DNA of 64,000 bases from an uncultured Acidobacteriota bacterium (GTDB lineage Bacteria > Acidobacteriota > Vicinamibacteria > Fen-336 > JAGNNV01), in the NCBI GenBank assembly GCA_964396875.1, contig CAYNHK010000001.1, positions 4,546 to 68,545 of the forward strand, written 5' to 3'. Both the position numbers and the translations under genes were made by a program. Shown here one piece after another: positions 1,767 through 45,817 of this stretch. Below the pieces are notes generated by a model. The model did no database searches, had not been told where the DNA came from, and saw only the letters and a program-made list of their open reading frames with translations. The stretch's first letter is position 1, and each line of letters opens with the position of its first letter.

Positions 1767-1819
1767 GTCTTCCTCGGGCTTTTTGTGTGGTTCGCAAGCG
1801 TACACTAGGCCCTAAACCA

Positions 1820-4034: not shown

Positions 4035-6422
4035 ATGAGGCTTCATGCGATAGCCGTTCTGCTTGCGCTGGCTGCGTCCGGCGCGCGCGCCGAAAGTACG
4101 CGGATCGTGACGCCGCTCGACACCGAATGGCGCTTCCTTCGCGGTCACGCGACCGGCGCCGAAGGCCGCGGTTTCAACGATTCGAGCTGGCGCGTCGTCG
4201 ACGTTCCCCACGACTGGAGCATTGAAGGGCCCTACGACCAGGCGGCGCCGAGCGGCCGCGGCGGCGGGTACCTTCCTTCGGGCGTGAGCTGGTATCGGAA
4301 GGCCTTCACCCTTCCTGAATCCCAGCGAGGCCGGCGCGTCCATGTCGAGTTCGACGGTGTCATGGCGGGCGCGCGCGTGTGGGTCAACGGCCGACACCTC
4401 GGCCATCGGCCGAACGGCTATATCAGCTTCAGGTACGACATCACCGACGTGCTTCGCTTCGGCGTGGGCGATGCCGGGAAGAACGTGATCTCCGTCCGCA
4501 CCGATACCACGCTCCAGCCGGCCTCACGCTGGTACACCGGCCAGGGCATCTACCGGAAAGCGCGCCTTGTCTCCACCGATCCCGTTCACGTCGCCCCATG
4601 GGGCCTGTATGTGACGACTCCCGAGGCCGCCGTAGAGCGAGCCGTCATTCGGGTGCAGACCGAGGTCGTGAACGCATCGAACACACCGCGTCAGGTGATT
4701 GTGCGGCTAGCCCTACTCGATCCGGCTGGCCGCGAGGTCGCGACGCAGGAGGCGCCGACGCAGACGATCGAGCCCGCGGAGCGTGCGACACTCACGCAGG
4801 ACCTCAAACTCGATTCGCCGAAACGCTGGGATCTCGAGAACCCTCATCTATATCGCGCGGTGGCTCGCGTGGTGGCGGACGGCGCCGTAGTGGACGATGT
4901 CACGACGACGTTCGGCATCCGCGACGCTCGCTTCGAGCCCGCCACGGGCTTCTGGCTGAACGGAAAGAACTTCAAGGTGCTGGGCGTGAATCTTCATCAC
5001 GACGGTGGCGCGGTTGGAGCGGCGGTTCCCCTGGCCGTGTGGGAGCGACGGCTCAGGAATCTGAAGCAGCTTGGCGTCAATGCGATTCGGACCGCCCACA
5101 ATCCGCCTTCCCCGGACTTCCTCGATCTGACCGATCGTCTCGGCTTTCTCGTCATGGACGAAGTGTGGGACGCGTGGACGGTGGGGAAGCAACACGCGAA
5201 CTACGGCGTTCACATGATCTTCAGGGAATGGTGGGAAGCCGACACGCGCGACACCGTGCTGCGCGACCGAAATCATCCGAGCATCGTTCTCTACAGCACC
5301 GGCAATGAGATTCACGACACGCCGTTCCCGGATGTCGCCAAGCCGGTTCTGAAAGGCCTGATCGACGTCTTCCACAAGCACGATCCCTCGCGGCCGGTCA
5401 CTCAGGGGTTGTTCCGTCCCAACATCAGCAAGGACTATCACAACGGCCTCGCCGACATGCTCGATGTGGTCGGTCAGAACTACCGTGAGAACGAACTCAT
5501 CGCGGCGTATCACCAGAAGCCGACGCGGAAGGTGATCGGCACGGAGAACCGACACGAACGCGACGCGTGGCTCCCGGTTCGCGACAACGCGTTTTACGCC
5601 GGCCAGTTTCTCTGGCCCGGCATCGACTACCTGGGCGAAGAAGACTGGCCGCGCACCACGTTCGTGCGCGGGCTTCTCGACCGCACGGGCGAGCCGCGGG
5701 CCGCGGGATATCAGAGGCAGAGCTGGTGGTCCACGACGCCTATGGTTCGCGCGTACCGTCGTCTCGCTCCACCACCCCGACCCGAGATCGATCCCGGCTA
5801 CGATCCCGTCGCCCCGCCCCCACCTCCGCCCGCTCCGATCCTCATGTCCGACTGGACGCCGCCGGATCTCAGTCCCCACAGCGAAGACGTCGAGGTCTAC
5901 AGCAACGCGGATGAAGTGGAACTGCGGCTCAATGGACGTTCGGTGGGCCGCCTCCCCAAGCCCGCGGATGACGCTCCACGCATCTTCAAAGTCCCCTTCG
6001 CGAAGGGCGTTCTTGCGGCGGTGGCGAAAAACAAGGGCAAAGTTGTCGCGACCCATGAACTTCGGACCGCCGGACCCGCGTCTCGCATCGTCTTGAAGGT
6101 CGATCGGGCGAGCGTCACCCCGGTGTGGGACGACCTGGCTCACATCACCGCGGAGATCGTCGACGAACAGGGGGTGGTGGCGCCGGGTGCGTCGGCGGAG
6201 ATCACCTTCACGGTGTCGGGGCCCGGCAAGGTCGTCGCGGTGGACAACGGCGATCCGCAGAGTCACGAGCCGTATCAGGCGACGAAGCGCAAGACGTTCC
6301 TGAGCCGCGTGCTCGCACTGGTCCGTGTCGGCGAGGCCTCGGGCCGTGTCACGGTGTCTGCGCAATCGCCAGGATTGGCGACGGGCACGGTTTCGTTCGA
6401 CGCTGTGCCGGTCTCCCGATAG
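4035..6422 (+). CDS. GH2 family beta-galactosidase/beta-glucuronidase-like glycoside hydrolase
   Basis: Signal peptide, then a GH2 sugar-binding domain (WRFLRG...WRVVDVPHDW), a TIM-barrel segment NAIRTAHNPPSPDFLDLTDRLGFLVMDEVWDAW, and NEIHD. Confidence 0.85.
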   Translation: MRLHAIAVLLALAASGARAESTRIVTPLDTEWRFLRGHATGAEGRGFNDSSWRVVDVPHDWSIEGPYDQAAPSGRGGGYLPSGVSWYRKAFTLPESQRGRRVHVEFDGVMAGARVWVNGRHLGHRPNGYISFRYDITDVLRFGVGDAGKNVISVRTDTTLQPASRWYTGQGIYRKARLVSTDPVHVAPWGLYVTTPEAAVERAVIRVQTEVVNASNTPRQVIVRLALLDPAGREVATQEAPTQTIEPAERATLTQDLKLDSPKRWDLENPHLYRAVARVVADGAVVDDVTTTFGIRDARFEPATGFWLNGKNFKVLGVNLHHDGGAVGAAVPLAVWERRLRNLKQLGVNAIRTAHNPPSPDFLDLTDRLGFLVMDEVWDAWTVGKQHANYGVHMIFREWWEADTRDTVLRDRNHPSIVLYSTGNEIHDTPFPDVAKPVLKGLIDVFHKHDPSRPVTQGLFRPNISKDYHNGLADMLDVVGQNYRENELIAAYHQKPTRKVIGTENRHERDAWLPVRDNAFYAGQFLWPGIDYLGEEDWPRTTFVRGLLDRTGEPRAAGYQRQSWWSTTPMVRAYRRLAPPPRPEIDPGYDPVAPPPPPPAPILMSDWTPPDLSPHSEDVEVYSNADEVELRLNGRSVGRLPKPADDAPRIFKVPFAKGVLAAVAKNKGKVVATHELRTAGPASRIVLKVDRASVTPVWDDLAHITAEIVDEQGVVAPGASAEITFTVSGPGKVVAVDNGDPQSHEPYQATKRKTFLSRVLALVRVGEASGRVTVSAQSPGLATGTVSFDAVPVSR

Positions 6423-6433
6423 CATCGTTCCAG

Positions 6434-13503: not shown

Positions 13504-13562
13504 ATCGTCTCCTTTGGTCAGTACGCCGCCAGCATAGGTTCGCGGCGGCCGGGAGGAACTGA

Positions 13563-13574
13563 CCAGAACTGGCG
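13563..13574. promoter_or_regulatory. CCAGAACTGGCG box, 60 nt upstream of the GH42 start codon
   Basis: Exact 12-mer, shared with the box at 22024-22035 and palindromically with the box at 26181-26198. Confidence 0.45.
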
Positions 13575-13597
13575 ATGCCGCGGGCACCGCGACGATG

Positions 13598-14086
13598 TCA
13601 GGGTTCGTCGGCGGTGGGGCCGTAGACCTGCGGAACCGTTGAACCCATCGCTCGAAGGTACGTCGTGATCTGTCCGCGGTGGTGGATGATGTCGAACAGA
13701 AATCCCCAGGCCTGGGCGTAGCCCGTGGACCGGTTGACCTCGTGGGTCCCGAACATGAACGGGATCTGGGCTTCGAACTTCGCTGTGTCGAGAGCGGTCA
13801 GGCGTTCGGCGAAGGTAGCGAGGTGCTGGTCGTAGGCCTCGACGGTCTCGCGCATCGTGGCAGGCGCTTTCACGTTCACCCACTCCAGCACACCGCGTTC
13901 GAGTCCGTCGATCAGAGTCTTCTCCTCGTGCACGATCTGCCACGCGATCTCGGCGGCCGGTCGCGACTTCGGATCGGGCGTGTAGGTCGAGCCTTCGGGA
14001 ATACGGGCGAGGACGTTGCGCGTCGTGCGTCCTTCCTTCTTCCAGAACTTGATGATCAGGTCTTTTTCTTCCATGGCAGCGTGCAT
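13598..14086 (-). CDS. DinB/YfiT-like (DinB_2) family metal-dependent protein
   Basis: Four-helix-bundle DinB pattern with the IIHHRGQ motif near the C-terminus. Start taken at ATG 14086 (MHAAMEEKD...) because the longer ORF would overlap the upstream gene ending at 14107. Confidence 0.65.
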   Translation of the reverse strand: MHAAMEEKDLIIKFWKKEGRTTRNVLARIPEGSTYTPDPKSRPAAEIAWQIVHEEKTLIDGLERGVLEWVNVKAPATMRETVEAYDQHLATFAERLTALDTAKFEAQIPFMFGTHEVNRSTGYAQAWGFLFDIIHHRGQITTYLRAMGSTVPQVYGPTADEP

Positions 14087-14106
14087 ATTAAGGCCCAACT
14101 CGTCGT

Positions 14107-15798
14107 CTATCGGACCCGGCGGGCGCTTGCGACTTTGTTCCACTCGCGCTGGATCACGGTACCGCCTCTGTGGCCTCGCAGCATTTGGGGCGTGACCTGG
14201 CCTGTCTTAAGCGCGCGCTGGACTGACTCGACGACCGTGGCCGCGGATCTCAGGGGCAGCGTGTGCGCGGCTACGCCGAAGATCTGGGGGCCGCTCTCGA
14301 AGTCGACGATGCGGCCGAGGAAGACATCGCCCTGGGCGAGTCGGCCGCGCGTGCGCGGGTCAGCATCGACGAACACGCGAATCTCGCCCGTGAGCAGGTC
14401 GCGGCAGGAGAACTGATCCCTCGAACTGTCCGCGATGTGCCAGGCGGAGATCCACGACCGAGTTTGCGCCTTGATCCATTCCGCGGCCACCGGGGAGGCG
14501 TACCCGCTGTCCAGAATTGCCTCGGCCACCGTGAAATCCGCGTTCTTCGGGAAACGATGGAAGAGCGCCCAGGGCGTGGCCAGAGAGTCGCCATCGTCCT
14601 TCCGCGACGCTCGGTCGATTTCTCGAGCTGCGTCCTTGAACTGTGACTCGGCCGCGGCAAGGAGCAAGGGCAGGGCCTCAATCAAGCCGGCGTTCCTCTC
14701 CTCCTCGATCGCCTCCTCTCCCTCCGAGGCCGGGAGTGGGTCCTCGTTGATCCCAAAAAGCGCGCTGGCCTCGAAGGGCACGGTGAGGCGGGTCACGCCG
14801 ACACCGGCCACGGGTGTTTCCATGCAAATCGGCCAGCCGCGAGGGTCTCCGAATCGCCGCCCGAACTCGCGGAGCCCCCGCTCCAGAGCGGCGGCGGCGG
14901 CCACCATCAGGCGAACGTCACGCTCGGCAGGGGGGCGCCTGACGCCGTCCGCGTCTACACAAAGGACGGAGGGATAAAGCGTGCTTCGCCCGCCTCTGAG
15001 GCCCATTGCCGCGGCTTCACTTCTCATCTTTAAGGGGAAGTCCGCGGAGTCGTCGAAGTTGAGAGCCAGAATGGGCACGCCAGGATCGACGGACTCGATC
15101 GCGAATTCCGGTTGATTGGCGAGACGCTCGCCGCGGCCCTGGTGGACGAGGTAGTCCGCCTCCGACTCGAAGAAGAGGACCGCCCGCGACTCGCCCATGT
15201 GCCCGATGATGCAGAGTGCCGCGTTCCGCACACCCATCGCCGGGACGTCCAACCGGATGAGTTGCGAGTTTGGGAACAGGTCCCATGGACGCAACTTCGC
15301 AAGCGCGGATCCGCGTTTGATCATGTCCGCAATCAGCGGAGGCGCAACGCCAGTCTCGAAGTAGCTGCGCTCGCCGGATTCGTCGTCCGGCGCTTGCCCC
15401 GGCTCTGAACCGCCGCCCGCGTCGAGGTACCGCTTCAACTCCTCGAGGAACTGGTCCGCCTCGCGAAGGGGCCTCTCGGAGACCTCCACAGGGATGTGAA
15501 ACTCCGCGGCGAGCATGGCGCCGAGGTTTGCGGACTCGACGATGATTCGCTCGGGCCGTCGCTGTGGTCCCGCCATTGGCCGCACCAGTGCTTCGCGAAG
15601 GAGGTTCACCGCGAGGTCGGGTGTGGCGTCGACGGTGATTTCGTGTCCCAGAAGCAGCTCAGTCTCGCGTTCGAGGATGACCGTTTGCCACGCTCGTCTG
15701 TTCGGGTTTTCGCGGACGTAGAACGGCGCCTGGCGGATCAACACGAGCCAGGTGAGAGGCTCGCGGAATACGTGGGGGGCGATTTCGGACAGCGCCAT
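14107..15798 (-). CDS. Hypothetical protein, 563 aa, no recognisable family
   Basis: Long ORF with even codon usage, divergent from the rhaD-like gene and followed by the DinB-like gene on the same strand. No motif recognised by eye. Confidence 0.6.
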   Translation of the reverse strand: MALSEIAPHVFREPLTWLVLIRQAPFYVRENPNRRAWQTVILERETELLLGHEITVDATPDLAVNLLREALVRPMAGPQRRPERIIVESANLGAMLAAEFHIPVEVSERPLREADQFLEELKRYLDAGGGSEPGQAPDDESGERSYFETGVAPPLIADMIKRGSALAKLRPWDLFPNSQLIRLDVPAMGVRNAALCIIGHMGESRAVLFFESEADYLVHQGRGERLANQPEFAIESVDPGVPILALNFDDSADFPLKMRSEAAAMGLRGGRSTLYPSVLCVDADGVRRPPAERDVRLMVAAAAALERGLREFGRRFGDPRGWPICMETPVAGVGVTRLTVPFEASALFGINEDPLPASEGEEAIEEERNAGLIEALPLLLAAAESQFKDAAREIDRASRKDDGDSLATPWALFHRFPKNADFTVAEAILDSGYASPVAAEWIKAQTRSWISAWHIADSSRDQFSCRDLLTGEIRVFVDADPRTRGRLAQGDVFLGRIVDFESGPQIFGVAAHTLPLRSAATVVESVQRALKTGQVTPQMLRGHRGGTVIQREWNKVASARRVR

Positions 15799-15837
15799 GC
15801 TTGCGAAGCTACCGCGTTTCGTGTCGGACCCGCGAAC

Positions 15838-15850
15838 CCACAGAACTGGC
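15838..15850. promoter_or_regulatory. Degenerate copy of the box (CACAGAACTGGCT) in the divergent promoter region between the hypothetical protein and the rhaD-like gene
   Basis: 77 nt upstream of GTG 15927 and 40 nt upstream of the minus-strand start at 15798. Confidence 0.3.
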
Positions 15851-15926
15851 TATGGAATCGGGCCCTCAAAAGTGCGAACCTTCGCTTCGAAGAAGATTGA
15901 CTTTCGAGACAAGACAGGGAGCCCAA

Positions 15927-18230: not shown

Positions 18231-21200
18231 CTAGAACAGGAACTTCGCCGCAACCTGCACGCGGCGCGCGTAGTTCGACTGGTTCGACGCCGAAATCTCG
18301 CCGAAGTTCGACGCTGTCGGGTTGACCACAGGCGCCGGGAAGTACGCGGAGTTGAGGGCGTTCACGACCTCAAAACGAAGCTGGAGCGAAGTCCGGCCCC
18401 GGAGCGACACGTTCTTGAGCAGCGACGCGTCGAGGCTCGCGATGTTGTCGCGGCGAACGTCCGAGAAACGCAGCGGCATGGTGCGGAGGTGACTGACCGG
18501 ACTCGCGTCGTTGGAGGTCGCGCCGTTCCTGACCGACGTGATGTTGGCGGTGTTGAACCACCGGAGCGTAGTCCGCTCGCTCTTCGGAAGCGCCAGGCTC
18601 TGGCCGTTCCAGAAACCGTTGTTCGTGAAGGCGATGGGGAAGCCGGTCTGATACGTATAGACGCCCTGGATCTGCCAGCCGCCGAGAATGGCCTCAAGCG
18701 CGCCCGAAGCGTCCGACAGGAACGTGCGGCCCTTGCCGAAGGGGACGTTCATGATCGTGCTGAGCGACAGACGATGCGTCGCGTCGAGGTCGGAGATGAC
18801 CCGGGTGGGTGACTCGTCCGAGGCGTTCAGATACTCGGTGGCCTGTTCCCACTTCGACAGGGTGTAGGACATGCCAACCGTGTACCCCTTCGAGAAGCGC
18901 TTCTGGACGCTGAACTGGCCCGAGTTGTACCAGGACTTGCCGTCGTTGTTGGTCGTCGTTATGTCGCCGTAGCCGGGGAACGGGCGGAGCAACTGCGTGC
19001 GGGACGTGGTGCCGCCGTTGATGCCCGCGCCCGGAACGAGACCTGCGAACGGATTCGCGACCGTGGCGCCCAGGAAGTTGTTGTTCGCGGTCATCGCCGC
19101 CGTACGCGAGTTGTCGGTGTTGAGGTACTGGCGCGGAAGGGTGTTGATGTTCCGGTTGATCTCGATGTCGTAGCCGTAGTTCCCGACGTACGCCGCCTCG
19201 ACGGTGAAGCCGCCGGGGAGTTCGCGCTGGATCCCCACCTGGTAGCGGAGCTGCTTCGAGACCTTCGGATCAGGATTGAAGAACGTGATCGCGTTCCCGA
19301 GAGAGGTCTGGCGACCCTGAGAATTCCCGATGGGCTCGAGAATCGGGAGGGAGGTCAACGAGCTGTCCCAACTGCGGGCGATCGGAGCTCCCGAGGGGAG
19401 GGTGACCGACGGGAAGGTCGTGGTCTGGGAGTAGCCGGGCTGAATGACGTCGCCGCGCCGCTGACCCAGGAAGCCCGCGAAGAGACCGATGCCGCCGCGG
19501 ATCGAAGTCTTCTCGTTGACCGAGTAGGCGAAACCGAAACGCGGAAGGAAGGTGTTCTTCGGTGTGTTGTAGAGACGCGGCGTGTCCTTTTCGACGAACA
19601 TCAACCCGCCCTTGACCGTGAGCTGAGACTTCAGCGCCTTGAGCGCCGGGTCGTTGAGCGAGGCATAACGCTGCTGCACCGTGCCTTCGATCGGCTGGGT
19701 GTAGCCGAAGTCAAAGTTGCTGACGCTCTTGCCGTTGCGTTCGGTGAGAGGCGTCTCGACCTCCCAGCGCACGCCGAGGTTCACGGTCAACTTGTCGTTC
19801 ACTCTCCAGTCATCGTGAAGGAAGATCCCGTAGGTCTTCGAATACTCGGAGTAGTCGGAAGGACGCGTGATTTCGGTCGTCGTGGGAAGCCCGAGGAGAA
19901 ATGCGGCGTAGGCCTGGATGCCGTTGAAGTCCGTTCCGGAAGCGCTGTTCTGGCGGGTGTAGGTGTTGTCGAACACAAACCGGCCGCTCGTGTTGTTGCC
20001 GGTGGAGAGGCTGTCCTCGCGGTAGATGCGCATCTCGACGCCGGTTTTGAGGGAGTGCGAGCGCAGTGCCTTGTTCAAGGTCGCGCTCACGGTGTGGGAG
20101 GTGACGGGGCGGAAGTCGTTGCCGAACGCCGTGCCCACCATCGTGTTCGCGGGGAACTCGATGCGCGGGAAGCGGCGCAGACCGTCGGACACGAGGCTGT
20201 TATACGAGCCCGGGAAACCCGCGTTGGTGAGGTCGTAGTCCGAGATGTATTCGGGGAGCTGCCCCGAGTTGCGCTCGAACCGGTTCCAGCCATAGCGCAC
20301 GTTCAGCACGGTCGTGTTGTTGATGGTGTGGACATCGTCCGCCACCATCTGGTACGAGATGAACTGGAAGTTGGTGGCCGTGAGTCCGGTGCCCAGGTAG
20401 TCGTTGTAGATCGAATCGCGCTTGTACCAGCTCCCGCGCACGAACGCCCGGTTGTTGTTCGAGACCCTCTGATCGAGCCGGAAGGTGGTGCTGTTGTAAT
20501 CCGCCGTCTCGGCCAGGGTCGCATCGAAGATATTGCCGTTGAGTCCGGACGTCTTGGGCAGCGAGTACAGCTCCAGGATCTTCCTCGCCGCGGGGCTGAT
20601 GCGGTTCGCCGGGATCACGTTCCCGGGGAAGGGCGTGCCCGTGAAGCCGCCGGCGCCGTTCGAGACGCGAGTCAGCGGGTCGTAGATCTGGACGTTGCCG
20701 AGGAAGGCGGAGAGGTCGCCGTTTCGCATGGCCGCGGTGGGAACCCAAACCGAGGAGCCGGCGTCGAAGCGCGGGCGGGTGTCCTTGATGTGCTCGAAAC
20801 CGATCGCGAAGAAGGTCCGTTCGCGGCCGTCGTAGACGCCGGGGATCTTGACGGGGCCGGTGAGGGTGAAACCGGGGCGGTTGTGCGAGCTCTTGACCCG
20901 CTCCTGGCCGCGCGCCTTGCCGAAGAAGTCGTTCGCACCGAGGGTCGAGGGCTCGGCGAAGAAATAGACCGACCCGTGAAGGCTATTGGTTCCCGACTTG
21001 ATGGTGATGCTCGTGACGCCGCCTTCCGTGTTGCCGAACTGCGCGTCGAAGGTCGCGGTCTGGACCCGGAACTCCTGCACGAGGTCGGAGGGGGGCACGT
21101 AGGTCGCGATGACTTCGTTCGCATTCGCGGTCGCGGTGCTGGGCGATCCGTCGATGAGCAGGTCGGAGCGGTTGCCGCGCGTGCCGTCGTAGGCGTAGCC

Positions 21201-21764
21201 GATGATGTGGGTCGGCTCGTACGGACGGTCGAGACGCTGGTCGCCGGTGTGCGACAAACCGGTGGCCAGGCCCATGATCTTGTAGGGATCTCCGTGAATC
21301 AGGGGAAGCTCCGCGATTCGTTTCGCGTCGAGGGTGAGACCCATGTTCCCGTCGTTGGTATTGATCGGCGCGCCCTCAGCCAGGACCGTCACCGTTTCCT
21401 CGGCTCCACCCAATTCGAGAATGGCCGCGATGTTGCGGGTCTCGTTCATCGAAAGCGGGATCTTGTCCTGAATGTACTTCTTGAAGCCCTGCATTTCGAC
21501 GGTGACCAGGTAGGTCCCGGGGATCAGGTAGTTGACGGTAAACATGCCCTCGCTGTTTGTCACCGTGGAGACGGTGGTGTTTCTCTGGGTGTCCGTAACC
21601 TTGACATCGGCGCCGGGCAGGACTCCCCTGGTCGGGTCCGTGACGCGGCCGGTGATTCTTCCTCGGGCTTCCTGGGCCATCAGGGCGGCCGGAGCGAAGG
21701 CGACTATCAGAAACAAGATCAGAGCGGTGCGGTGCGAACGTAGGGGAGTCGGGTTCGATTTCAT
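18231..21764 (-). CDS. TonB-dependent outer-membrane receptor with N-terminal carboxypeptidase-regulatory-like domain (glycan-uptake candidate)
   Basis: 1177 aa with a signal peptide, a CarbopepD_reg-like segment (GRITGRVTDPTRGVLPGADVKVTD), plug and barrel regions, and a C-terminal aromatic F. Architecture is typical of Acidobacteria/Gemmatimonadetes. Confidence 0.9.
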   Translation of the reverse strand: MKSNPTPLRSHRTALILFLIVAFAPAALMAQEARGRITGRVTDPTRGVLPGADVKVTDTQRNTTVSTVTNSEGMFTVNYLIPGTYLVTVEMQGFKKYIQDKIPLSMNETRNIAAILELGGAEETVTVLAEGAPINTNDGNMGLTLDAKRIAELPLIHGDPYKIMGLATGLSHTGDQRLDRPYEPTHIIGYAYDGTRGNRSDLLIDGSPSTATANANEVIATYVPPSDLVQEFRVQTATFDAQFGNTEGGVTSITIKSGTNSLHGSVYFFAEPSTLGANDFFGKARGQERVKSSHNRPGFTLTGPVKIPGVYDGRERTFFAIGFEHIKDTRPRFDAGSSVWVPTAAMRNGDLSAFLGNVQIYDPLTRVSNGAGGFTGTPFPGNVIPANRISPAARKILELYSLPKTSGLNGNIFDATLAETADYNSTTFRLDQRVSNNNRAFVRGSWYKRDSIYNDYLGTGLTATNFQFISYQMVADDVHTINNTTVLNVRYGWNRFERNSGQLPEYISDYDLTNAGFPGSYNSLVSDGLRRFPRIEFPANTMVGTAFGNDFRPVTSHTVSATLNKALRSHSLKTGVEMRIYREDSLSTGNNTSGRFVFDNTYTRQNSASGTDFNGIQAYAAFLLGLPTTTEITRPSDYSEYSKTYGIFLHDDWRVNDKLTVNLGVRWEVETPLTERNGKSVSNFDFGYTQPIEGTVQQRYASLNDPALKALKSQLTVKGGLMFVEKDTPRLYNTPKNTFLPRFGFAYSVNEKTSIRGGIGLFAGFLGQRRGDVIQPGYSQTTTFPSVTLPSGAPIARSWDSSLTSLPILEPIGNSQGRQTSLGNAITFFNPDPKVSKQLRYQVGIQRELPGGFTVEAAYVGNYGYDIEINRNINTLPRQYLNTDNSRTAAMTANNNFLGATVANPFAGLVPGAGINGGTTSRTQLLRPFPGYGDITTTNNDGKSWYNSGQFSVQKRFSKGYTVGMSYTLSKWEQATEYLNASDESPTRVISDLDATHRLSLSTIMNVPFGKGRTFLSDASGALEAILGGWQIQGVYTYQTGFPIAFTNNGFWNGQSLALPKSERTTLRWFNTANITSVRNGATSNDASPVSHLRTMPLRFSDVRRDNIASLDASLLKNVSLRGRTSLQLRFEVVNALNSAYFPAPVVNPTASNFGEISASNQSNYARRVQVAAKFLF

Positions 21765-21898
21765 CTCATGTCCTTCTCATCGGGCTTAGGGTCGACGGCG
21801 CTTTTGGTTGGGGCCACGCTGCATCGCTTTCAAGCTGGGGTTCGCAAGAACTGCGCAGATCATTTGGATGCCTTCGGAGCCTGAGTGAATTTGGCAAG

Positions 21899-21928
21899 GT
21901 TATAGGACCACTCGGTACAGTCTGTCAA
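21899..21928 (-). promoter_or_regulatory. Near-consensus sigma70-type promoter for the TonB-dependent receptor: -35 TTGACA (21928-21923), 18-nt spacer, -10 TATAAC (21904-21899)
   Basis: Read on the minus strand as gcTTGACAgactgtaccgagtggtccTATAACcttgcc. It sits in an unusually AT-richer 400-bp leader, which implies a 5' UTR of about 125 nt. Confidence 0.45.
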
Positions 21929-22021
21929 GCCTTGTATTACCATTTGTCCGTCAGGAGATCCGCCATCAGCGGAGCGCATAACCGCCATAATTCCCCGGTT
22001 TTCGGGTTCAATGGCGAGCAT

Positions 22022-22035
22022 CCCCAGAACTGGCG
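22022..22035. promoter_or_regulatory. CCCCAGAACTGGCG box upstream (about 95 bp) of the receptor promoter -35 element
   Basis: Flanked by a partial extended inverted repeat, GCGAGCA...TGCTCG. Confidence 0.45.
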
Positions 22036-22167
22036 AGTGCTCGTGAAATGGTCTTCCCGGGTCGAATGGTCGGACCATTGAAGGCACGGAGGTTGTCCGG
22101 AGGGCAAACTGGGTGACCACCTGGCCGTGTCCTTGCGGGGGCACGCTGCGCATGCCCGTAACCAGGG

Positions 22168-26088: not shown

Positions 26089-26180
26089 TTCGAGCGTCCC
26101 GCCTGAGGCGAGCCGCGCCGCGTGGAGGAGTGTTTCATGCGATCAGAGCGAGCAGGCTAATCGAACTCGCATCTCGATCG

Positions 26181-26198
26181 GTCGCCAGTTCTGGCGAC
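26181..26198. promoter_or_regulatory. Perfect 8-2-8 palindrome GTCGCCAG-TT-CTGGCGAC in the divergent promoter region between the MocA oxidoreductase and GH78
   Basis: 89 nt upstream of the GH78 ATG and 93 nt upstream of the oxidoreductase start. Confidence 0.5.
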
Positions 26199-26286
26199 GC
26201 ACGCGAAAAATACCGCGTGTGATAATCGCGAACAGCCCCGTGCGGCCACTCTGCGCGGCAACATCGGCGAGGAAGCGGCGCGAAGA

Positions 26287-34416: not shown

Positions 34417-34478
34417 ACCCTACTCTCGCGGCCGCCCGACTCCTTCACAATCCCCAGAAATGGGGAGGCCGTGGCGCA

Positions 34479-40363: not shown

Positions 40364-40406
40364 GCGGTGAGCAAGGCTACCCTCGATCGACCCCGTCGCG
40401 GCCAAT

Positions 40407-40420
40407 GGCCAGTTCTGGGG
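40407..40420. promoter_or_regulatory. GGCCAG-TT-CTGGGG box, 44 nt upstream of the galT start
   Basis: The minus strand reads CCCCAGAACTGGCC, which matches the receptor-leader box. Confidence 0.4.
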
Positions 40421-40445
40421 AGTTGCTGACTCGGAGCCAGGGTCG

Positions 40446-41798
40446 CTAGCGGGCCAGCAAGGCAGCCGGAATATCAACGACCACCAGGTCCAGGCTCTTC
40501 CCATCCGTCAACCGGCCCGACTGAAGGAGGACACGCCTGCCGTCGGGGCTGAAGATCGGATGGGTGTGGTCCGGAATCATCTTGTGGTCGGTGGTGAGGA
40601 GAATGCGCTCGCCAGTTCTCCGGTCGATCAGGTACACGTTCCCCTTGAACGAATCGGCGACTGCCCACCGCCCGTCGGGTGAACCGTTGCAGTGCCAGAG
40701 GCCCCCGGTGCGGCGCTCGCCCATGTCCTCCTCGATCTGGGCCAGGATCGACATGTGGTTGGTACGCAGGTTGATGACCGCGACCCCCGACGGCTTCTCG
40801 CGCAGGTAGGGCAGATGGCCCATCAGATTGAACATCACCTCGTCCCTCGTGGCGAAGGTCTCATGAGTGACCCACTCGTCGGGGGACTCTGCGTAGAGCG
40901 GGCGATGGCCCGTGCCATCGGCCCGCACCACCCACATCCGCTGCACCGCGTCCCCCGTGGTTTCGTGGCAGTACAGGATCTCCCCGGGAACCCAGGGGTT
41001 CGTCTGCAGGTGCCCCAGCCGCATCGGGATATCGATGACTGTCCCGATCTCGCCCGTCTTCATGTCGATGCTTCTTATCCCGCTTCTCCCGCGGCCCGCC
41101 GCTTCGAAACGCAGGCGCGACGTCTCCCGGTCCTGATCCGGATCCATGTTCCGGTCGTCGATGACCCGTCGTCCCGCGGGCGGCGCCGCCGCGTGCGACC
41201 TGGACGCTGGCGCCGGACGCGAAGGCACCTCCGGCTCCAGATTGATGCCGAAGTAAACCCGGCTTTCGTCGGAGTCGAGTGCGATCCCGCCGCCTCGCAT
41301 GTTGTCCGGAAGTGTAGCCACGACCCGCTCGTAGGTTGCCGCGGGTCGAGGCGTCCCCGCCATCGCGTCGGCGATGAGCGGATCAAGGTTCAGTTCAATC
41401 AGCTGTCGCGGCCGGTCCCGCATGAAGAACGCCTTGTTCGTCTTGTGCGACAGAGTCACATTGCTCGCGTTCACGTCGCCCGCGGTCATCTGGATGATGT
41501 CGCCGGTCTGTTCGTGGACCAGGAAAGCCTGCGGACCGCTGCCATCGCGAGAGCTGCGAAGGAGAATCCACTTGCCGTCGGCTGTCCAGGTCGGATCGGT
41601 CTGGTAGGGCTTCGAGTCATTCACCGGATCTGTGGTGAGGAATGTCAGATTCAAGCCGGTCACCGCGTCGACGATGATTCGCTTCTCAGGCGGAAACCGC
41701 CGACCGACGTGCGATGCGTCGGCCTCCGCCGCGGCCAGGAGGCTCAGAACACCGAGTGCAGCCAGGCCACGCCGGAAGGGGCCGGCCTCTCGCATCAA
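40446..41798 (-). CDS. Secreted TolB-like beta-propeller protein, probable oligogalacturonide lyase family (PF14583-like)
   Basis: Signal peptide and repeated TolB-type blades (ADGKWILLRSSRDGSGPQAFLV, HCNGSPDGRWAV, FSPDGRRVLL). The pectin-locus context fits. Confidence 0.5.
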   Translation of the reverse strand: MMREAGPFRRGLAALGVLSLLAAAEADASHVGRRFPPEKRIIVDAVTGLNLTFLTTDPVNDSKPYQTDPTWTADGKWILLRSSRDGSGPQAFLVHEQTGDIIQMTAGDVNASNVTLSHKTNKAFFMRDRPRQLIELNLDPLIADAMAGTPRPAATYERVVATLPDNMRGGGIALDSDESRVYFGINLEPEVPSRPAPASRSHAAAPPAGRRVIDDRNMDPDQDRETSRLRFEAAGRGRSGIRSIDMKTGEIGTVIDIPMRLGHLQTNPWVPGEILYCHETTGDAVQRMWVVRADGTGHRPLYAESPDEWVTHETFATRDEVMFNLMGHLPYLREKPSGVAVINLRTNHMSILAQIEEDMGERRTGGLWHCNGSPDGRWAVADSFKGNVYLIDRRTGERILLTTDHKMIPDHTHPIFSPDGRRVLLQSGRLTDGKSLDLVVVDIPAALLAR

Positions 41799-42502
41799 GC
41801 CTCCGCGTTTGGCGGAGTCGGTGTCTTCGGTGGCGAAGCGAGCGGGTTGCCGCCGCCGCGGGTTGCGGCGCCTAGAGTTCTCGTCAGGTGAACGGCGGCC
41901 GCGCGCGTGCGCGTGTTCACCTGGAGCTTTTCGTAGATGTGCCGGACATGCGAATGCACGGTGTCGTAGCCGATCGCGAGTTCCTCCGCGATCTCGCGGT
42001 ACAAGTAGCCCTTCGAAAGAAGCTCGAGGACTTCCTGCTCACGAGGGGTCAGCGTTTCGGAGCTGGCGATCGGCGCCGCCGGAACCGCGCGGAAGGACTG
42101 CACGACTTTGCGCGCGATGTGGCTCGACATCGGCGAGCCGCCGGCCTTGACCTCCTTGATGCTCGATATGAGGGCGGGGCCCGGCGTCCGCTTCAGGAGA
42201 TAGCCGCTGGCGCCCGCGGCGAGGGCATTGAAGATCAGATCGTTGTCCTGATACACGGTGAGCATCATGACCTGGGTGTCGGGAAGCGATACCTTCAGCC
42301 GGCGCACGCACTCGACCCCGTCGATTCCCGGGAGGTTGATGTCCATGAGCACCACCTCAGGCTTCACGCCGGGCAACACCTGAAGCGCCTCTTCACCGGA
42401 CCCATGCTCGCTTACGCAGCGGAGACCGGGGGCTCGTTCCAGCAGGCGAACGAGGCTCGCTCGCACTCGCTTGTCGTCTTCGACCACGGCGACGCTGATC
42501 AT
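41795..42502 (-). CDS. Two-component response regulator, NarL/FixJ (LuxR-type HTH) family
   Basis: Receiver domain (VVEDD...VVLMDINLPGIDG) plus a C-terminal LuxR HTH (TPREQEVLELLSKGYLYREIAEEL). Its stop overlaps the downstream start (ATGA). Confidence 0.9.
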   Translation of the reverse strand: MISVAVVEDDKRVRASLVRLLERAPGLRCVSEHGSGEEALQVLPGVKPEVVLMDINLPGIDGVECVRRLKVSLPDTQVMMLTVYQDNDLIFNALAAGASGYLLKRTPGPALISSIKEVKAGGSPMSSHIARKVVQSFRAVPAAPIASSETLTPREQEVLELLSKGYLYREIAEELAIGYDTVHSHVRHIYEKLQVNTRTRAAAVHLTRTLGAATRGGGNPLASPPKTPTPPNAEA

Positions 42503-42577
42503 CGAGACACCGGAGAAATCACCGCGGGAGCTTAGGGCGGCGCGAGGCTCGGCGCCAATAGCCAGTTCGTGGGAGTC

Positions 42578-45500
42578 TCAGGTCCTGGTCTGGGTCAGGC
42601 GAACCCGGGTGCCTCCGGCGACTCCATTCGAGATCTGGAATCGCGCCCCGATCGAGAGCATGCGTTCATCGATATTGCGGAGTCCCCGTCCTCCCTGAAC
42701 GCGGAGCGGTGTCTTCGTCGGGGCGGCGCTTCGCCCGCATCCATCGTCCTGCACTTCGATTTCGAACTCGGTGGGCGACAGCGTGAGGCTCAATCGCACC
42801 TCCGAAGCGCCCGCGTGTTTGACCACGTTGTTCAAGGCTTCCTTGACCGCGAGAAACAGGTTGTGCCGGGCCTCGGCGCGCAAAGGGATCGCGGGAATAG
42901 TCTCGGGCGCTTCGAGTCGGCAGGCGATTCCCGCGGTGGCGAGGTACTCCTGGGCAAAGTGAATGATGTAGTCCCACAGACTGTCGAGCGTGTCTTCGCG
43001 CGGGTTGACCGCCCAGACAATCTCATCCATGGCGCGGGTGAGTTCCACCGCGGTCTCGCCGATCTGTTCGGCGTGGGCCTTCGCCTCCTGCGGATTGTCG
43101 TCGCGGAGCAACTCGCTCAGGAGGCTGATCTGGGTCAGGCCCGCGCCGAGGTCGTCGTGGATGTCCTTCGCGATTCGCGTGCGGTCGCGCTCGACCGCGT
43201 GTTGCTGCTCGAGTCTCGCCAGGTTTGTGCGAAGCGTGCGCGTGGAAAGGTGGCGCGCGATGGAAGCCGCGCCCGCGAGGGAGAACAGCAGGAGAAGGCT
43301 CTTGAAGCCCACGGTCTCCCAGAAGTGGGGCAGCACCTTGAGAGGCAGGGCCGACTCCCGCGCGCTCCAGACACCGTCGCTGTTCCGTGCGATCACTTCG
43401 AAGCGATAGTCGCCAGGCCGGAGGTAGCTGTACTGGGCCGTGCGTCGGTCCGTCGGAGGCGACCAGTCCTTCTCGAGGCCGATCAGGCGGTAGCGGAAGC
43501 GGACGGCGTCGGGGGCAGCGAGGCTGAGGCCGGTGTAGCGGAACTCAACCTCGCGGCTTCCCGCAGGAACGACCACCGCGTCGTTCGCCCCTGGTTCCTC
43601 ATTTCTGATCCGATCCACCCACACCTCTTCGACCACGCTTGCGGGCGGTACTTCGTTGTTGCGAAGGTCTCTCGGATTCACCGAGACCGCTCCGCCCGTG
43701 GTCGCGAACCACAGCCGCCCTTCCCGGCCGCGCCATGAGACGGGTTGGTATCCCGAGCACTCGAGCGGGGGAACGCCGTCGGCTCGGCCATAGGTCGAAG
43801 ACACGAGCGATGTCTCCTTCATGTCGGCGACATCCGCGAGGCTCTTCTGCGAGATTCGCAGGAGACCCTCGCGGGAGCCCACCCACAGATGTCCCTGGTC
43901 GTCGTCCAGGATCTGGCAGACCACGGCGCTCGTGAGGCCCTCGCGCGTCGTGTAACGGAAAACGCGACCCCCGGAAAGCCGCAGCAGGCCGCCCTGGTAG
44001 GTGCCCACCCACACCACACCGCCCGATTGTGCCCGCAGCGACCAGATCTGATGAGACGCCCCGGCCTCGCCCAGAGAGACCCGTTCGAAGCGACCCTCGG
44101 CGTAGCGGTGAAGCGTCCCGTCGCCGCCGCCGATCCAGATCGCGCCGTTCTCGTCCTCGGCGAGCGCGCGCACTTCCGTGACCGTCATGCCGTCGGCCGG
44201 CCCGAAATGTTCGACCTTGCCATTCGTCCTCCGCGAGAGCCCGTCCCTTCTCCCCATCCAAAGCCGGCCGGAGCGATCGACGAGCAGGGCTTTTATGCCG
44301 TGGACCGCGGGGGAGGTGGGGCGCGCTACTCCGTTCTCGAGGACCCAGAGGTCTTCATGGTCGGCGCTCATCCACAACCGATTGCCCTCGGGGAAAAGCG
44401 ATAGCACGAAAGGCCGGGTGGCGGGAGGCGGCAGAGCGAAGGACTGCAACCCGCGGTCGCGGAACCGGGCAAGGCCGGCCCCCGCGCTGCCGATCCAGAC
44501 CGAACCCTGGCGGTCCTCGGCCACGGAGACCGTGGCGTATGAAGATCCCTGCTTCGGAACGGTGACGAGGTCGAATCTCCTCTCGCGGATTCGGGCCAGG
44601 CCGCCGCGGTCGACACTCAGCCAGAGGTTCGCCTCGCGATCCTTGAACATGCTCACGACCCGTTCGCTCGCGAAACCCTGGGCGGCTCCGAAGTGCCGGC
44701 GGTTCCCCTGGTCGTCGACATGAAGCAGTCCGCGACCGCCGTGCGCGAACCACAGTCCGCCTCGCCGGTCTCCGATCGGGAGTCTCGGCTGGAGGGCGTC
44801 CTCCGGCAGGTATCGAGAGGGCCCGAGGTCCCGGATCCACTGGCCGTCGCGTCCCTGGAGCAGGCGCTCGTTGACGATCGCCCAGAATGAATCGTCCTCC
44901 GCGAAATGCAGGAAGCCGACGTCGACCCTTTGGGAACCCGCACCCACAGGCATCGGAGAAAACTCCGTTCCGGCCCAGCGCAGGATCCCGGCGTTGGTTG
45001 CAACGACCACGCGATCCTCGCGATCCGTGGTGAGGTATTGGATCAAGCGTCCCGCCGGTGCTGACGGCAGGGACACCTCTTCGGTACGGCCGTCGACGAT
45101 CCGCCAGAGCCTCTCGTCGGTCGACCGGATCCACAATTCGCCGGAGCGCGTCGCGCAAAACGTCGGGCTGAAGACGACGTCCTGGGGCCTGATGGTCCCC
45201 CAGGGACCCGCGCGTCCTGCGTCGAGGGTCCGTCGCAGGACCGACCCGGACTGAAGCACGAAGACCTGCTCGCGATCGGTTGACGACGCGAGCCATACAC
45301 CGCTCTCCACGCGTTCGCGGGCCGCCCACTCGGCGGTGAAGACGCCGTTGCGCCACGACGTGAGGGAGCCATCGTAGGTATTGATCCACAGCGTTCCGGC
45401 GCGGTCCGTGAACAGACGTTCGACGCGCGTGTGACCGAGGGCGCGCGTGTTCGAAGAATCGAATCGAACGAAGCGGACGCCGTCGAAGCGGGCGAGGCCG

Positions 45501-45673
45501 TCATACCCGCCGACCCACAGGTACCCCTCCGGAGTCTGGGCAATGGCGGTCGCCGAGTTGCCCGGCAGGCCTCTCGACGCGTCCCAGAAATCGATGACGT
45601 AGTCGGCCGCGCGCGCCTCCATGCCAGCGAGGGCCAGAAGGCCGACACACAGAAAGCGCAAAGGCGACATCAT
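42578..45673 (-). CDS. Sensor histidine kinase with periplasmic two-component-regulator-propeller / Y_Y_Y domains (hybrid-type glycan sensor without receiver domain)
   Basis: Signal peptide MMSPLRFLCVGLLALAG. Repeated propeller motifs (GLWFA, GLW, VWVGT), one TM segment before a HisKA_3 block (RIAKDIHDDLG), then HATPase_c. ATG 45673; ORF runs to 45808. Confidence 0.85.
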   Translation of the reverse strand: MMSPLRFLCVGLLALAGMEARAADYVIDFWDASRGLPGNSATAIAQTPEGYLWVGGYDGLARFDGVRFVRFDSSNTRALGHTRVERLFTDRAGTLWINTYDGSLTSWRNGVFTAEWAARERVESGVWLASSTDREQVFVLQSGSVLRRTLDAGRAGPWGTIRPQDVVFSPTFCATRSGELWIRSTDERLWRIVDGRTEEVSLPSAPAGRLIQYLTTDREDRVVVATNAGILRWAGTEFSPMPVGAGSQRVDVGFLHFAEDDSFWAIVNERLLQGRDGQWIRDLGPSRYLPEDALQPRLPIGDRRGGLWFAHGGRGLLHVDDQGNRRHFGAAQGFASERVVSMFKDREANLWLSVDRGGLARIRERRFDLVTVPKQGSSYATVSVAEDRQGSVWIGSAGAGLARFRDRGLQSFALPPPATRPFVLSLFPEGNRLWMSADHEDLWVLENGVARPTSPAVHGIKALLVDRSGRLWMGRRDGLSRRTNGKVEHFGPADGMTVTEVRALAEDENGAIWIGGGDGTLHRYAEGRFERVSLGEAGASHQIWSLRAQSGGVVWVGTYQGGLLRLSGGRVFRYTTREGLTSAVVCQILDDDQGHLWVGSREGLLRISQKSLADVADMKETSLVSSTYGRADGVPPLECSGYQPVSWRGREGRLWFATTGGAVSVNPRDLRNNEVPPASVVEEVWVDRIRNEEPGANDAVVVPAGSREVEFRYTGLSLAAPDAVRFRYRLIGLEKDWSPPTDRRTAQYSYLRPGDYRFEVIARNSDGVWSARESALPLKVLPHFWETVGFKSLLLLFSLAGAASIARHLSTRTLRTNLARLEQQHAVERDRTRIAKDIHDDLGAGLTQISLLSELLRDDNPQEAKAHAEQIGETAVELTRAMDEIVWAVNPREDTLDSLWDYIIHFAQEYLATAGIACRLEAPETIPAIPLRAEARHNLFLAVKEALNNVVKHAGASEVRLSLTLSPTEFEIEVQDDGCGRSAAPTKTPLRVQGGRGLRNIDERMLSIGARFQISNGVAGGTRVRLTQTRT

Positions 45674-45817
45674 CGGACGAGGCTCGCGGCCATCAGGCCG
45701 GGGATGACTGCGACGAGATATCGGCTGTCCTTCACGTGCGGAGGACGCTATCAAACAGCGGCCTCGCCAGAAGTGTGGAGGGCGGCAGGTCACGCGTTGT
45801 GGTAACAACGAGACCAG

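Follow-up and report, generated by a model that had tools for sequence, protein, structure and literature searches.

The 16-bp inverted repeat TNNCCAGWWCTGGNNA recurs in the promoter regions of a rhamnogalacturonan, rhamnose and galactose utilization locus carried by a 64,000-nucleotide stretch of contig CAYNHK010000001.1, from an uncultured soil Acidobacteriota bacterium (the whole stretch is hereafter the window). This box is almost certainly a transcription-factor site. Sequence comparison indicates that it is probably an activator site, bound by a dimer of the NarL/FixJ-family response regulator encoded at 41795-42502 within the same locus. The repeat had been noticed before, as a candidate operator of a sugar-catabolic regulon (the original prediction).

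An over-represented dyad confined to one glycan locus

The core CCAGWWCTGG matches five times in the window compared with 0.21 expected, and 0 of 100 dinucleotide shuffles reach five, in agreement with the recurrence beyond chance first claimed. Alignment of the five copies showed that every one of the 10 half-sites carries the outer base, T at -8 or A at +8, which lengthens the dyad to a 7-2-7 inverted repeat with the optimum TCGCCAG-WW-CTGGCGA. There are five exact matches to TNNCCAGWWCTGGNNA and one with a single mismatch. At up to two mismatches there are 15, against 3.9 expected, and none of 100 shuffles reaches that number. The unit put forward originally, CGCCAG-WW-CTGGCG, was correct as a dyad, but as the 14-mer CGCCAGWWCTGGCG it is borderline at two mismatches or fewer (seven matches, 1.9 expected) and the 16-mer is the better unit.

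An exact string check found most of the listed copies in place: the 12-mer CCAGAACTGGCG at 13563-13574 and 22024-22035, its palindromic partner CCAGTTCTGGCG at 1831-1842 (also present at 26185-26196), the perfect 18-bp palindrome GTCGCCAGTTCTGGCGAC at 26181-26198, and the variants GGCCAGTTCTGGGG at 40407-40420 and CGCCAGAAGTGTGG at 45765-45778. Two other variants exist but had been misplaced, CACAGAACTGGCT by 1 nt (15839-15851 rather than 15838-15850) and CCCCAGAAATGGGG by 10 nt (34452-34465 rather than 34442-34455), and two further copies, at 6366-6381 and 42559-42574, had been missed. The copies do lie within 100 nt of a start codon as was stated, except that at 22021.

Four of the 15 matches (12058, 33966, 44039 and 46704) are within coding sequence far from gene starts, which equals the chance expectation, and the non-coding match at 21842 also looks like chance. 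The remaining ten are the box copies of Table 1. Four of the five exact boxes are non-coding, in a window with a non-coding share of 5.8% in our gene map and a G+C content of 65.6%. With a weight matrix, eight matches of at least 12 bits were found (1.2 in Markov shuffles), all of them between 1828 and 45779, none in 47.8-64 kb, and all in, or at the edge of, non-coding DNA. Boxes 6366 (18.7 bits) and 45764 (15.9 bits) were recovered by the matrix although absent from its training set. The codon-driven GC artefact that had been named as a possible refutation is not borne out, since no shuffle reaches the observed counts and the copies are in or at the edge of non-coding DNA.

Pfam scans, which covered 39 open reading frames (ORFs) of the window, place a single glycan locus at 1-47.8 kb, and the box fronts most of the delimited transcription units of these 48 kb. 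Sequence shared among the copies is limited to the 16-bp unit; the flanks are unrelated. An Rfam scan of the window gave no match. A repeat search did not report these short palindromes with adjacent arms and is uninformative. As a dyad-symmetric 16-mer that is confined to the promoter regions of a carbohydrate-active enzyme (CAZyme) locus and kept in relatives, the box fits the dimeric-factor site of a sugar regulon that had been supposed.

The box accompanies homologues of the response regulator

The regulator consists of a two-component receiver and a GerE (LuxR-type) helix-turn-helix, and its nearest solved homologues are DevR/DosR (3c3w), NarL (1a04) and VraR (E 1e-28 to 1e-31). Across 10 homologues D9, the phospho-acceptor D54, T82 and K104 are invariant and D10, which with D9 forms the acidic pocket, is nearly so (≥ 90%). 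The protein carries no N-terminal autoinducer-binding domain, its N-terminal domain being the receiver. The recognition helix Y-x-T-V-H-x-x-x-R is conserved in homologues and takes the form Y-D/A-T-V-H-S/T-H/Y-V/I-R in box-associated ones. Immediately upstream lies the gene for a sensor histidine kinase. Its signal anchor and a periplasmic region of ~760 residues, in which a Y_Y_Y domain accompanies Reg_prop beta-propeller repeats, are followed by a single transmembrane helix (residues ~787-806) and by HisKA_3 and HATPase domains; the kinase is proposed to be a glycan sensor.

A matrix trained on six window boxes only was run on the contigs of regulator homologues. In L017 (regulator 85% identical), matches lie downstream (17.3 bits) and upstream (13.5 bits) of the regulator gene, as they do in L018 (77%; 17.4 and 14.0 bits), L019 (82%; 19.3 and 12.1 bits) and L023 (67%; 18.7 and 15.6 bits). 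L020-22 (67%) have a tandem pair downstream (24.0 and 19.2 bits) and a 19.8-bit match upstream. L018 has an additional 18.3-bit match in a GH2/kinase divergent region. Every match of at least 17 bits in these loci adjoins the kinase-regulator pair, while the best score in ~127 kb of unrelated loci was 12.4 bits; the related loci L025 and L026 gave no match of at least 10 bits. The pairing of kinase and regulator recurs in L017-L023 and L028-31, and the order kinase, regulator, box is kept in L017-L023.

Overall, the box flanks the regulator gene on both sides in five of six independent homologue loci, and the gene downstream varies among them (a TonB-dependent receptor, a Gly-rich/PATR protein or GH2). 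The degenerate variant present at box 42559 in the window, TC[CA]C[TA]CGAACTGG..A followed by TTG, is also found upstream of the regulator gene in L010, L017, L018 and L019. In comparative genomics, a local regulator gene bracketed by its own motif is the usual mark of an autoregulated factor that also governs adjacent genes. The response regulator, which had been named as one candidate factor, gains from this co-localization in five independent loci, and with fair assurance it can be predicted to be the protein that binds the box.

The tandem pair in L020 (10350-10389; also in L021 and L022) consists of TCGCCAGGACTGGTGA, 8 nt and TCGCCAGTTCTGGCGA, with 24 bp from centre to centre, and lies downstream of the 67% regulator homologue and upstream of the Gly-rich/PATR protein gene. 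It is reminiscent of tandem Dev boxes, which are needed for cooperative DevR binding.

Spacing to -10-like hexamers

Promoter geometry was examined by anchoring 25 box-to-gene orientations on the box. TAnnnT hexamers at +22 to +26, with a peak at +23, mark 15 of these orientations (P = 6e-19 against intergenic background); 8 of the 25 are left when the -10 is defined more strictly (P = 4e-7). TTG directly follows the box in 11. If the hexamer is set at -12 to -7, the box spans -51 to -36 and its centre is -43.5, the starts being those predicted from the -10-like hexamers. The -35 hexamers of these promoters are poor (0 to 3 of 6 matches). A consensus sigma-70 scan of the MocA-GH78 region found no complete promoter, mainly for want of a -35, a null result that is read as a weak -35 rather than as absence of a promoter. 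A consensus sigma-70-type promoter does occur in the locus, namely the box-independent promoter of the TonB-dependent receptor gene (TTGACA-N18-TATAAC).

Weak -35 elements of this kind are typical of class II activator-dependent promoters. The fixed distance to the -10 and the weak -35 argue for an activator site and against a repressor operator, which refines the 'operator' of the original prediction. Activation from about -43.5 appears, on balance, the most likely mode. An extracytoplasmic function (ECF) sigma or sigma-54 promoter, suggested by GAAC and TGGC words, was rejected because the motif is palindromic with AA or TT toward the gene, and because at least 29 nt separate it from the -10-like hexamer, too far for a -35. 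An RNA element was likewise rejected, there being no Rfam match and the boxes lying upstream of predicted starts.

At several genes the -10-like hexamer is only 7 to 10 nt before the start codon and no Shine-Dalgarno sequence is present (starts 34413, 45818, 15798, 40363 and 6434). The same short layout, also without Shine-Dalgarno, is seen in L018 (6161 and 6065) and L023 (10001). This arrangement suggests that the mRNAs for GH43, PL11, the 563-residue protein, galT and the ABC ATPase are leaderless or nearly so.

Conservation in relatives

Footprinting of orthologous promoters, which had been proposed as a check, showed that boxes persist in L027 (94% receptor orthologue, with the gene order of the window) and L032 (80% orthologue of the 728-residue protein). 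Upstream of the receptor gene in L027 the region is 74% identical, yet TCGCCAGTTCTGGGGAT is intact as an island. At the GH42 promoter the box, the 23-nt distance and TATGCT are all kept despite a diverged spacer and a 13-nt indel beside the box. The GH88 divergent region of L032 has a fully intergenic 23.5-bit box with TACGCT 23 nt away toward GH88 (+25 in the window). Upstream of its ABC-transporter operon is a 19.2-bit box, TCGCCAGGACTGGTGA, 38 nt from TAGCAT as for box 6366, and here the upstream neighbour differs between L032 and the window. A third L032 box (18.3 bits) precedes an operon for a sugar-isomerase-like protein and an FGGY kinase.

Box 1828 lies within a coding sequence. In the 90% orthologue P0243 the peptide METNQFWRF, encoded over the box, is unchanged and the remaining signal peptide has diverged; in orthologues of the 728-residue protein at 80% identity or less the N-terminus is unrelated and the box is intergenic. 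Together these findings indicate that the constraint at box 1828 acts on the DNA and not on the peptide.

Box 26182 is identical in L002 and L027, whose intergenic regions are 97% identical overall, and so is uninformative as a footprint. A search of genome contigs with a GH78 query likewise gave one close relative, spread over two contigs, with an intergenic region too similar to inform, and a metagenome search with a kinase query gave only two close, short contigs. For the MocA protein, a look-up of the exact sequence returned no entry. That the box is conserved before all orthologues of the TonB-dependent receptor had to be rejected, as L024 and L025 lack it there. The L024 contig carries a regulator orthologue and a box before GH115. 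Absence of the receptor box from these two orthologues implies that membership of the regulon is plastic and changes fast.

Individual copies of the box

Several boxes have a -10-like hexamer at or near the preferred spacing. Box 26182 is flanked in each direction by a predicted -10 element, GATAAT at 26221-26226, preceded by TGT and 23 nt from the box, on the plus side and TAGCCT at 26154-26159, 22 nt away, on the minus side. For box 13560 the predicted element is TATGCT at 13531-13536 (-), 23 nt away, and for box 1828, toward GH88/105, it is TACGCT at 1797-1802 (-), +25. Box 40406 is followed directly by TTGGCC and, at +26, by TAGCCT (40374-40379). The galT gene behind it is the first of a galT-permease-SBP-ABC-galK operon (SBP, substrate-binding protein). 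Box 34451 is followed directly by TTGTGA and, at +23, by GAGAGT (34422-34427), and the GH43 gene appears leaderless. At box 6366 the -10 TAGCAT (6420-6425) is 38 nt away, which puts the centre of the box near -58.5.

The degenerate box 42559 is followed by TTGGCG and by TAAGCT at +24, and is a candidate autoregulatory promoter site of the response-regulator gene. Of the two weak boxes, 15837 has TAGCTT at 15806-15811 (+25) toward the 563-residue protein gene, with the ATG 7 nt later, and its L027 counterpart is better (TCGCCAGTTCTGTGGG, 14.0 bits). Box 45764 has TAACAA at 45803-45808 (+23) toward PL11, with the ATG 9 nt later. The kinase orthologue in L015, a locus without PL11, has no such box upstream, which leaves the status of box 45764 uncertain; for the same reason, a role for this box as autoregulatory site of the kinase gene found no support.

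Table 1. Box copies and associated genes in the window
Feature	Coordinates	Strand	Box sequence	Context
Box 1828	1828-1843	.	TAACCAGTTCTGGCGA	Divergent region of GH88/105 (-, start 1766) and 728-residue protein gene (+, start 1820); overlaps codons 3-8 of the latter, 61 nt upstream of GH88/105 start codon
Box 6366	6366-6381	.	TCGCCAGGATTGGCGA	Inside last 57 nt of GH2 gene, upstream of sugar ABC-transporter operon (ATG 6434)
Box 13560	13560-13575	.	TGACCAGAACTGGCGA	56 nt upstream of GH42-rhaM operon (start codon 13503, -)
Box 15837, weak	15837-15852	.	CCCACAGAACTGGCTA	Between 563-residue protein gene (-) and aldolase/short-chain-dehydrogenase (RhaD-like) gene (+)
Box 22021	22021-22036	.	TCCCCAGAACTGGCGA	256 nt upstream of Oar-like TonB-dependent receptor gene (-)
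Box 26182, perfect	26182-26197	.	TCGCCAGTTCTGGCGA	Between MocA oxidoreductase gene (-) and GH78-GH88/105 operon (+)
Box 34451, one mismatch	34451-34466	.	TCCCCAGAAATGGGGA	37 nt upstream of GH43-CE12/GH28 operon (start 34413, -)
Box 40406	40406-40421	.	TGGCCAGTTCTGGGGA	42 nt upstream of galT (start 40363, -)
Box 42559, degenerate	42559-42574	-	TCCCACGAACTGGCTA	Kinase-regulator intergenic region, upstream of response-regulator gene
Box 45764, weak	45764-45779	.	TCGCCAGAAGTGTGGA	Between sensor-kinase gene (-) and PL11 rhamnogalacturonan lyase gene (+)
NarL/FixJ-family response regulator	41795-42502	-		Pfam Response_reg and GerE
Sensor histidine kinase	42578-45673	-		Immediately upstream of regulator; HisKA_3 and HATPase
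728-residue protein gene	1820-4006	+		Behind box; no significant Pfam domain
563-residue protein gene	14107-15798	-		Behind box; sub-threshold Pfam match to DUF6930 only
DinB-family ORF	13598-14106	-		Between 563-residue protein gene and GH42; L027 orthologue annotated PF05163
TonB-dependent receptor gene	18231-21764	-		Oar-like (CarboxypepD_reg and OMP_b-brl_4)

In the divergent region between GH88 and the 728-residue protein gene (1797-1843; L032 9925-9974), the predicted -10 elements of the two strands overlap each other (AGCGTACACT). The spacer between box 26182 and the GATAAT of the GH78 promoter is filled by a perfect inverted repeat, CACGCG-N8-CGCGTG (26200-26219), which may be a second operator or simply spacer. 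It is kept in L002 and L027, regions that are nearly identical overall. The control region of GH42 is narrowed to 94 nt by the DinB-family ORF.

The region upstream of the receptor gene (21890-22080) has features of its own. TTGACA of its sigma-70 promoter is at 21928-21923 (-). On the flanks of this promoter are TnGTnnnACnA motifs of the GntR type: TGGTAATACAA, on the reverse complement of 21932-21942, and, at 22067-22077, the palindrome TGGTCCGACCA. This promoter and the flanking TGGT(A/C)ATACAA are kept in the 94%, 84% and 79% orthologues (L027 9606-10000, L024 9615-10005 and L025 6923-7216), and a palindrome of the TGGTCCGACCA type is found in the window, in L027 (one change) and in L024 only. 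The 70% homologue (L026) has a GntR/FCD gene directly upstream. A second, different regulator probably controls the TonB-dependent transporter.

Proposed mechanism and its alternatives

In the proposed mechanism, the beta-propeller/Y_Y_Y domain of the kinase would detect a periplasmic oligosaccharide derived from pectin; the kinase would then phosphorylate the regulator, which would dimerize and bind the boxes. Most promoters have the box centred near -43.5 and abutting a weak -35, and there RNA polymerase would be recruited by the bound dimer (class II activation). The units switched on would be GH88/105, GH42-rhaM, GH78-GH88/105, MocA, GH43-CE12/GH28, galT-galK and the sugar ABC transporter, together with the regulator's own gene and probably PL11.

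Several observations weigh against this mechanism. Ten of the 25 orientations are without TAnnnT at +22 to +26, and some boxes are off the common geometry: 22021 lacks a -10 at the common distance (AATTAT, at +28, comes closest), 6366 and its L032 counterpart are at +38, a distance that is conserved, and the L032 box at 5667 is at +16. With respect to the plus-strand operon (1820), box 1828 and its L032 counterpart are downstream of the putative start, a position that activation does not explain. Receptor orthologues at 84% (L024) and 79% (L025) are without a box, and in L025 not one box occurs in 17.5 kb, despite its rhamnose genes. The most distant regulator examined, P0102 (62% identical), is without a clear box in the 4 kb that flank it on each side, so that extension of the regulator-box link to this homologue is unsupported; its recognition helix is that of the box-associated P0020 except for one I-to-V change. 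Finally, regulators only 67% identical to that of the window share the box, so that the actual binder, or a further one, could be a paralogue from the same genome.

The last point favours a genuine site bound by a different protein encoded outside the window, either a paralogous NarL-type or a global carbohydrate regulator, for which the kinase-regulator operon would merely be one more member of its regulon. As the box adjoins 67% identical regulators in L020 and L023, its specificity is not unique to one orthologue group; the more than 7,900 regulator homologues at E ≤ 1e-40 make paralogues in the same genome likely; and in L028-31 a regulator with a near-identical recognition helix (one I-to-V) has no flanking box. 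Even so, an outside factor is rather unlikely, since the best matrix matches flank the regulator on both sides in five of six independent loci whatever the downstream gene, and Pfam found no other DNA-binding regulator among the window ORFs scanned. The regulator might instead act on the box as a repressor, occluding the -35 region at a true operator until derepressed by the signal. NarL-family regulators can repress, the box touches the -35 position, it lies downstream of the putative start of the operon at 1820 (likewise in L032), and its distances to the -10 vary (+16, +28 and +38). Repression would not need a fixed 23-nt phasing, and the boxes lie ahead of the predicted -35 and -10 of the genes that they precede, in no case between these elements or past them. 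The poor -35 hexamers, with no complete consensus promoter, are also typical of activator-dependent promoters, so repression is less probable still.

It is most improbable that the recurrence has no regulatory meaning, being a chance or codon-driven GC-rich word, a dispersed repeat of the repetitive extragenic palindromic (REP) or miniature inverted-repeat transposable element (MITE) kind, or an RNA element. Two copies (1828 and 6366) do overlap coding sequence, in DNA of high G+C. Chance is opposed by the shuffles and by the concentration of copies in, or at the edge of, the small non-coding fraction. Unlike REP or MITE repeats, the copies are similar over 16 bp only, with fixed phasing to -10 hexamers, and the motif is kept in diverged orthologous promoters. 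At box 1828 the signal-peptide region has diverged at the protein level except over the box. Besides the lack of an Rfam match, the boxes lie upstream of predicted starts and so would be untranscribed.

Comparison with known systems

NarL sites have a 7-2-7 layout of the heptamer TACYYMT. The box is likewise an inverted repeat of two 7-bp halves 2 bp apart, and the regulator, with its receiver, GerE helix-turn-helix and HisKA_3 kinase partner, resembles NarL/FixJ regulators. In sequence, the half-site of the box, TCGCCAG, is related neither to the NarL heptamer nor to the DevR motif GGGACT. The kinase differs in its large periplasmic beta-propeller sensor, and a plant-cell-wall glycan presumably takes the place of nitrate or hypoxia as the signal. 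DevR dimers also recognize a palindrome (PMC3177182).

The central 10 bp of the box, CCAGAACTGG, are identical to those of the las/rhl boxes of Pseudomonas aeruginosa LasR/RhlR (lasB AACCTGCCAGAACTGGCAGGT and vqsR CACCTACCAGAACTGGTAGTT; PMC10732425), while the outer bases differ (TCG-CCAG in the window, CTG/CTA-CCAG in P. aeruginosa). Because this core is shared, a GerE-type dimer on CCAG-NN-CTGG next to a -35 has direct precedent. Lux boxes are centred at -42.5, a position similar to that predicted for the box, about -43.5 and adjoining or overlapping the -35. Unlike LuxR, LasR and RhlR, the window regulator is phosphorylation-controlled and not an acyl-homoserine-lactone receptor, so the box would work like a lux box without belonging to a quorum-sensing system. 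The recognition helix of the window regulator is presumably not especially similar to those of LasR and RhlR.

A functional likeness exists to the hybrid two-component systems (HTCS) of Bacteroidetes and to two-component control of xylan use in Cellvibrio japonicus, in which a periplasmic sensor of the Reg_prop/Y_Y_Y type governs a locally activated glycan-degrading locus with a TonB-dependent transporter. Of the three canonical systems for CAZyme control, HTCS are one, with C. japonicus as an example (PMC10766802), and HTCS motifs and regulons are reported to have been inferred by comparative genomics (PMC3878776). HTCS fuse kinase, receiver and AraC-type domain, whereas the window encodes kinase and regulator as two proteins, with LuxR/GerE as output domain and HisKA_3 as kinase core. 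The locus also differs from Bacteroidetes polysaccharide utilization loci (PULs) in being without a SusC/SusD pair, in its Oar-like transporter and in its host, an Acidobacteriota (Vicinamibacteria-like) bacterium.

Gene content of the locus

The locus begins with GH88/105, the 728-residue protein and GH2, and continues with a sugar ABC transporter, rhaM-GH42, the DinB-like ORF, the 563-residue protein and an aldolase/short-chain-dehydrogenase (RhaD-like) fusion. The Oar-like TonB-dependent receptor and two GH43 genes are next, followed by the MocA oxidoreductase, GH78-GH88/105, CE12-GH28 and another GH43. Then come galK, a second ABC transporter, galT and a PL22-like protein, and finally the NarL/LuxR-type response regulator, the Reg_prop/Y_Y_Y/HisKA_3 sensor kinase and the PL11 rhamnogalacturonan lyase. 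The last 16 kb of the window are mostly unrelated to the glycan locus (a helicase, peptidases, MacB and similar, and one GH31). The receptor is the sole TonB-dependent transporter found, and no ORF scanned matched the SusD family. The nearest relatives found are uncultured, being metagenome-derived Acidobacteriota and Vicinamibacteria metagenome-assembled genomes; among cultured bacteria, Luteitalea pratensis has a TonB-dependent receptor 65% identical to that of the window.

The 728-residue protein has more than 6,600 homologues and occurs in Acidobacteriota, Verrucomicrobiota and Opitutaceae. This protein and the 563-residue protein are candidates for new pectin- or rhamnose-related functions. 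The PL22-like/PD40 gene (40446-41798) and the regulator gene share 4 nt (41795-41798) at the stop codon of the latter, and kinase, regulator and PL22-like genes are therefore probably one operon. L017 has a different arrangement, its PL22-like orthologue (72% identical) following a TonB-dependent receptor behind the box.

Implications

No description of this motif or regulon, or of a regulon or binding motif for Acidobacteriota glycan-degrading loci, was found in the searchable literature and, as far as we found, gene regulation in this abundant soil bacterial group has apparently not been worked out. The type of control, a two-component system with a LuxR-type activator box, is known; this example, in this phylum, is most likely previously undescribed. 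As the mechanism is of an expected type, the value of the finding is in annotation and ecology and not in concept. It gives a testable cis-element with a likely regulator and sensor, and a promoter model of box, weak -35 and TAnnnT -10, often leaderless. This model can be used for annotation of co-regulated pectin, rhamnose and galactose genes in metagenomes, for substrate prediction for unknown proteins behind a box, such as the 728- and 563-residue proteins, and for the design of inducible expression tools for cultured relatives, for example L. pratensis.

More tentatively, and with the balance of probability against it, the box may be the shared DNA code of an expanded subfamily of beta-propeller-kinase/NarL-regulator pairs in Acidobacteriota (Vicinamibacteria and relatives), because 67% identical regulators beside quite different targets use the same box at the same distance from the -10. 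Such a subfamily could be the functional counterpart of the Bacteroidetes HTCS-PUL regulators. If so, many glycan signals would converge on overlapping promoter sets or, alternatively, specificity would come from flanking bases, from tandem boxes as in L020 or from kinase-regulator pairing. Together with the frequent leaderless CAZyme genes, a shared code would amount to a lineage-specific logic of glycan-responsive transcription.

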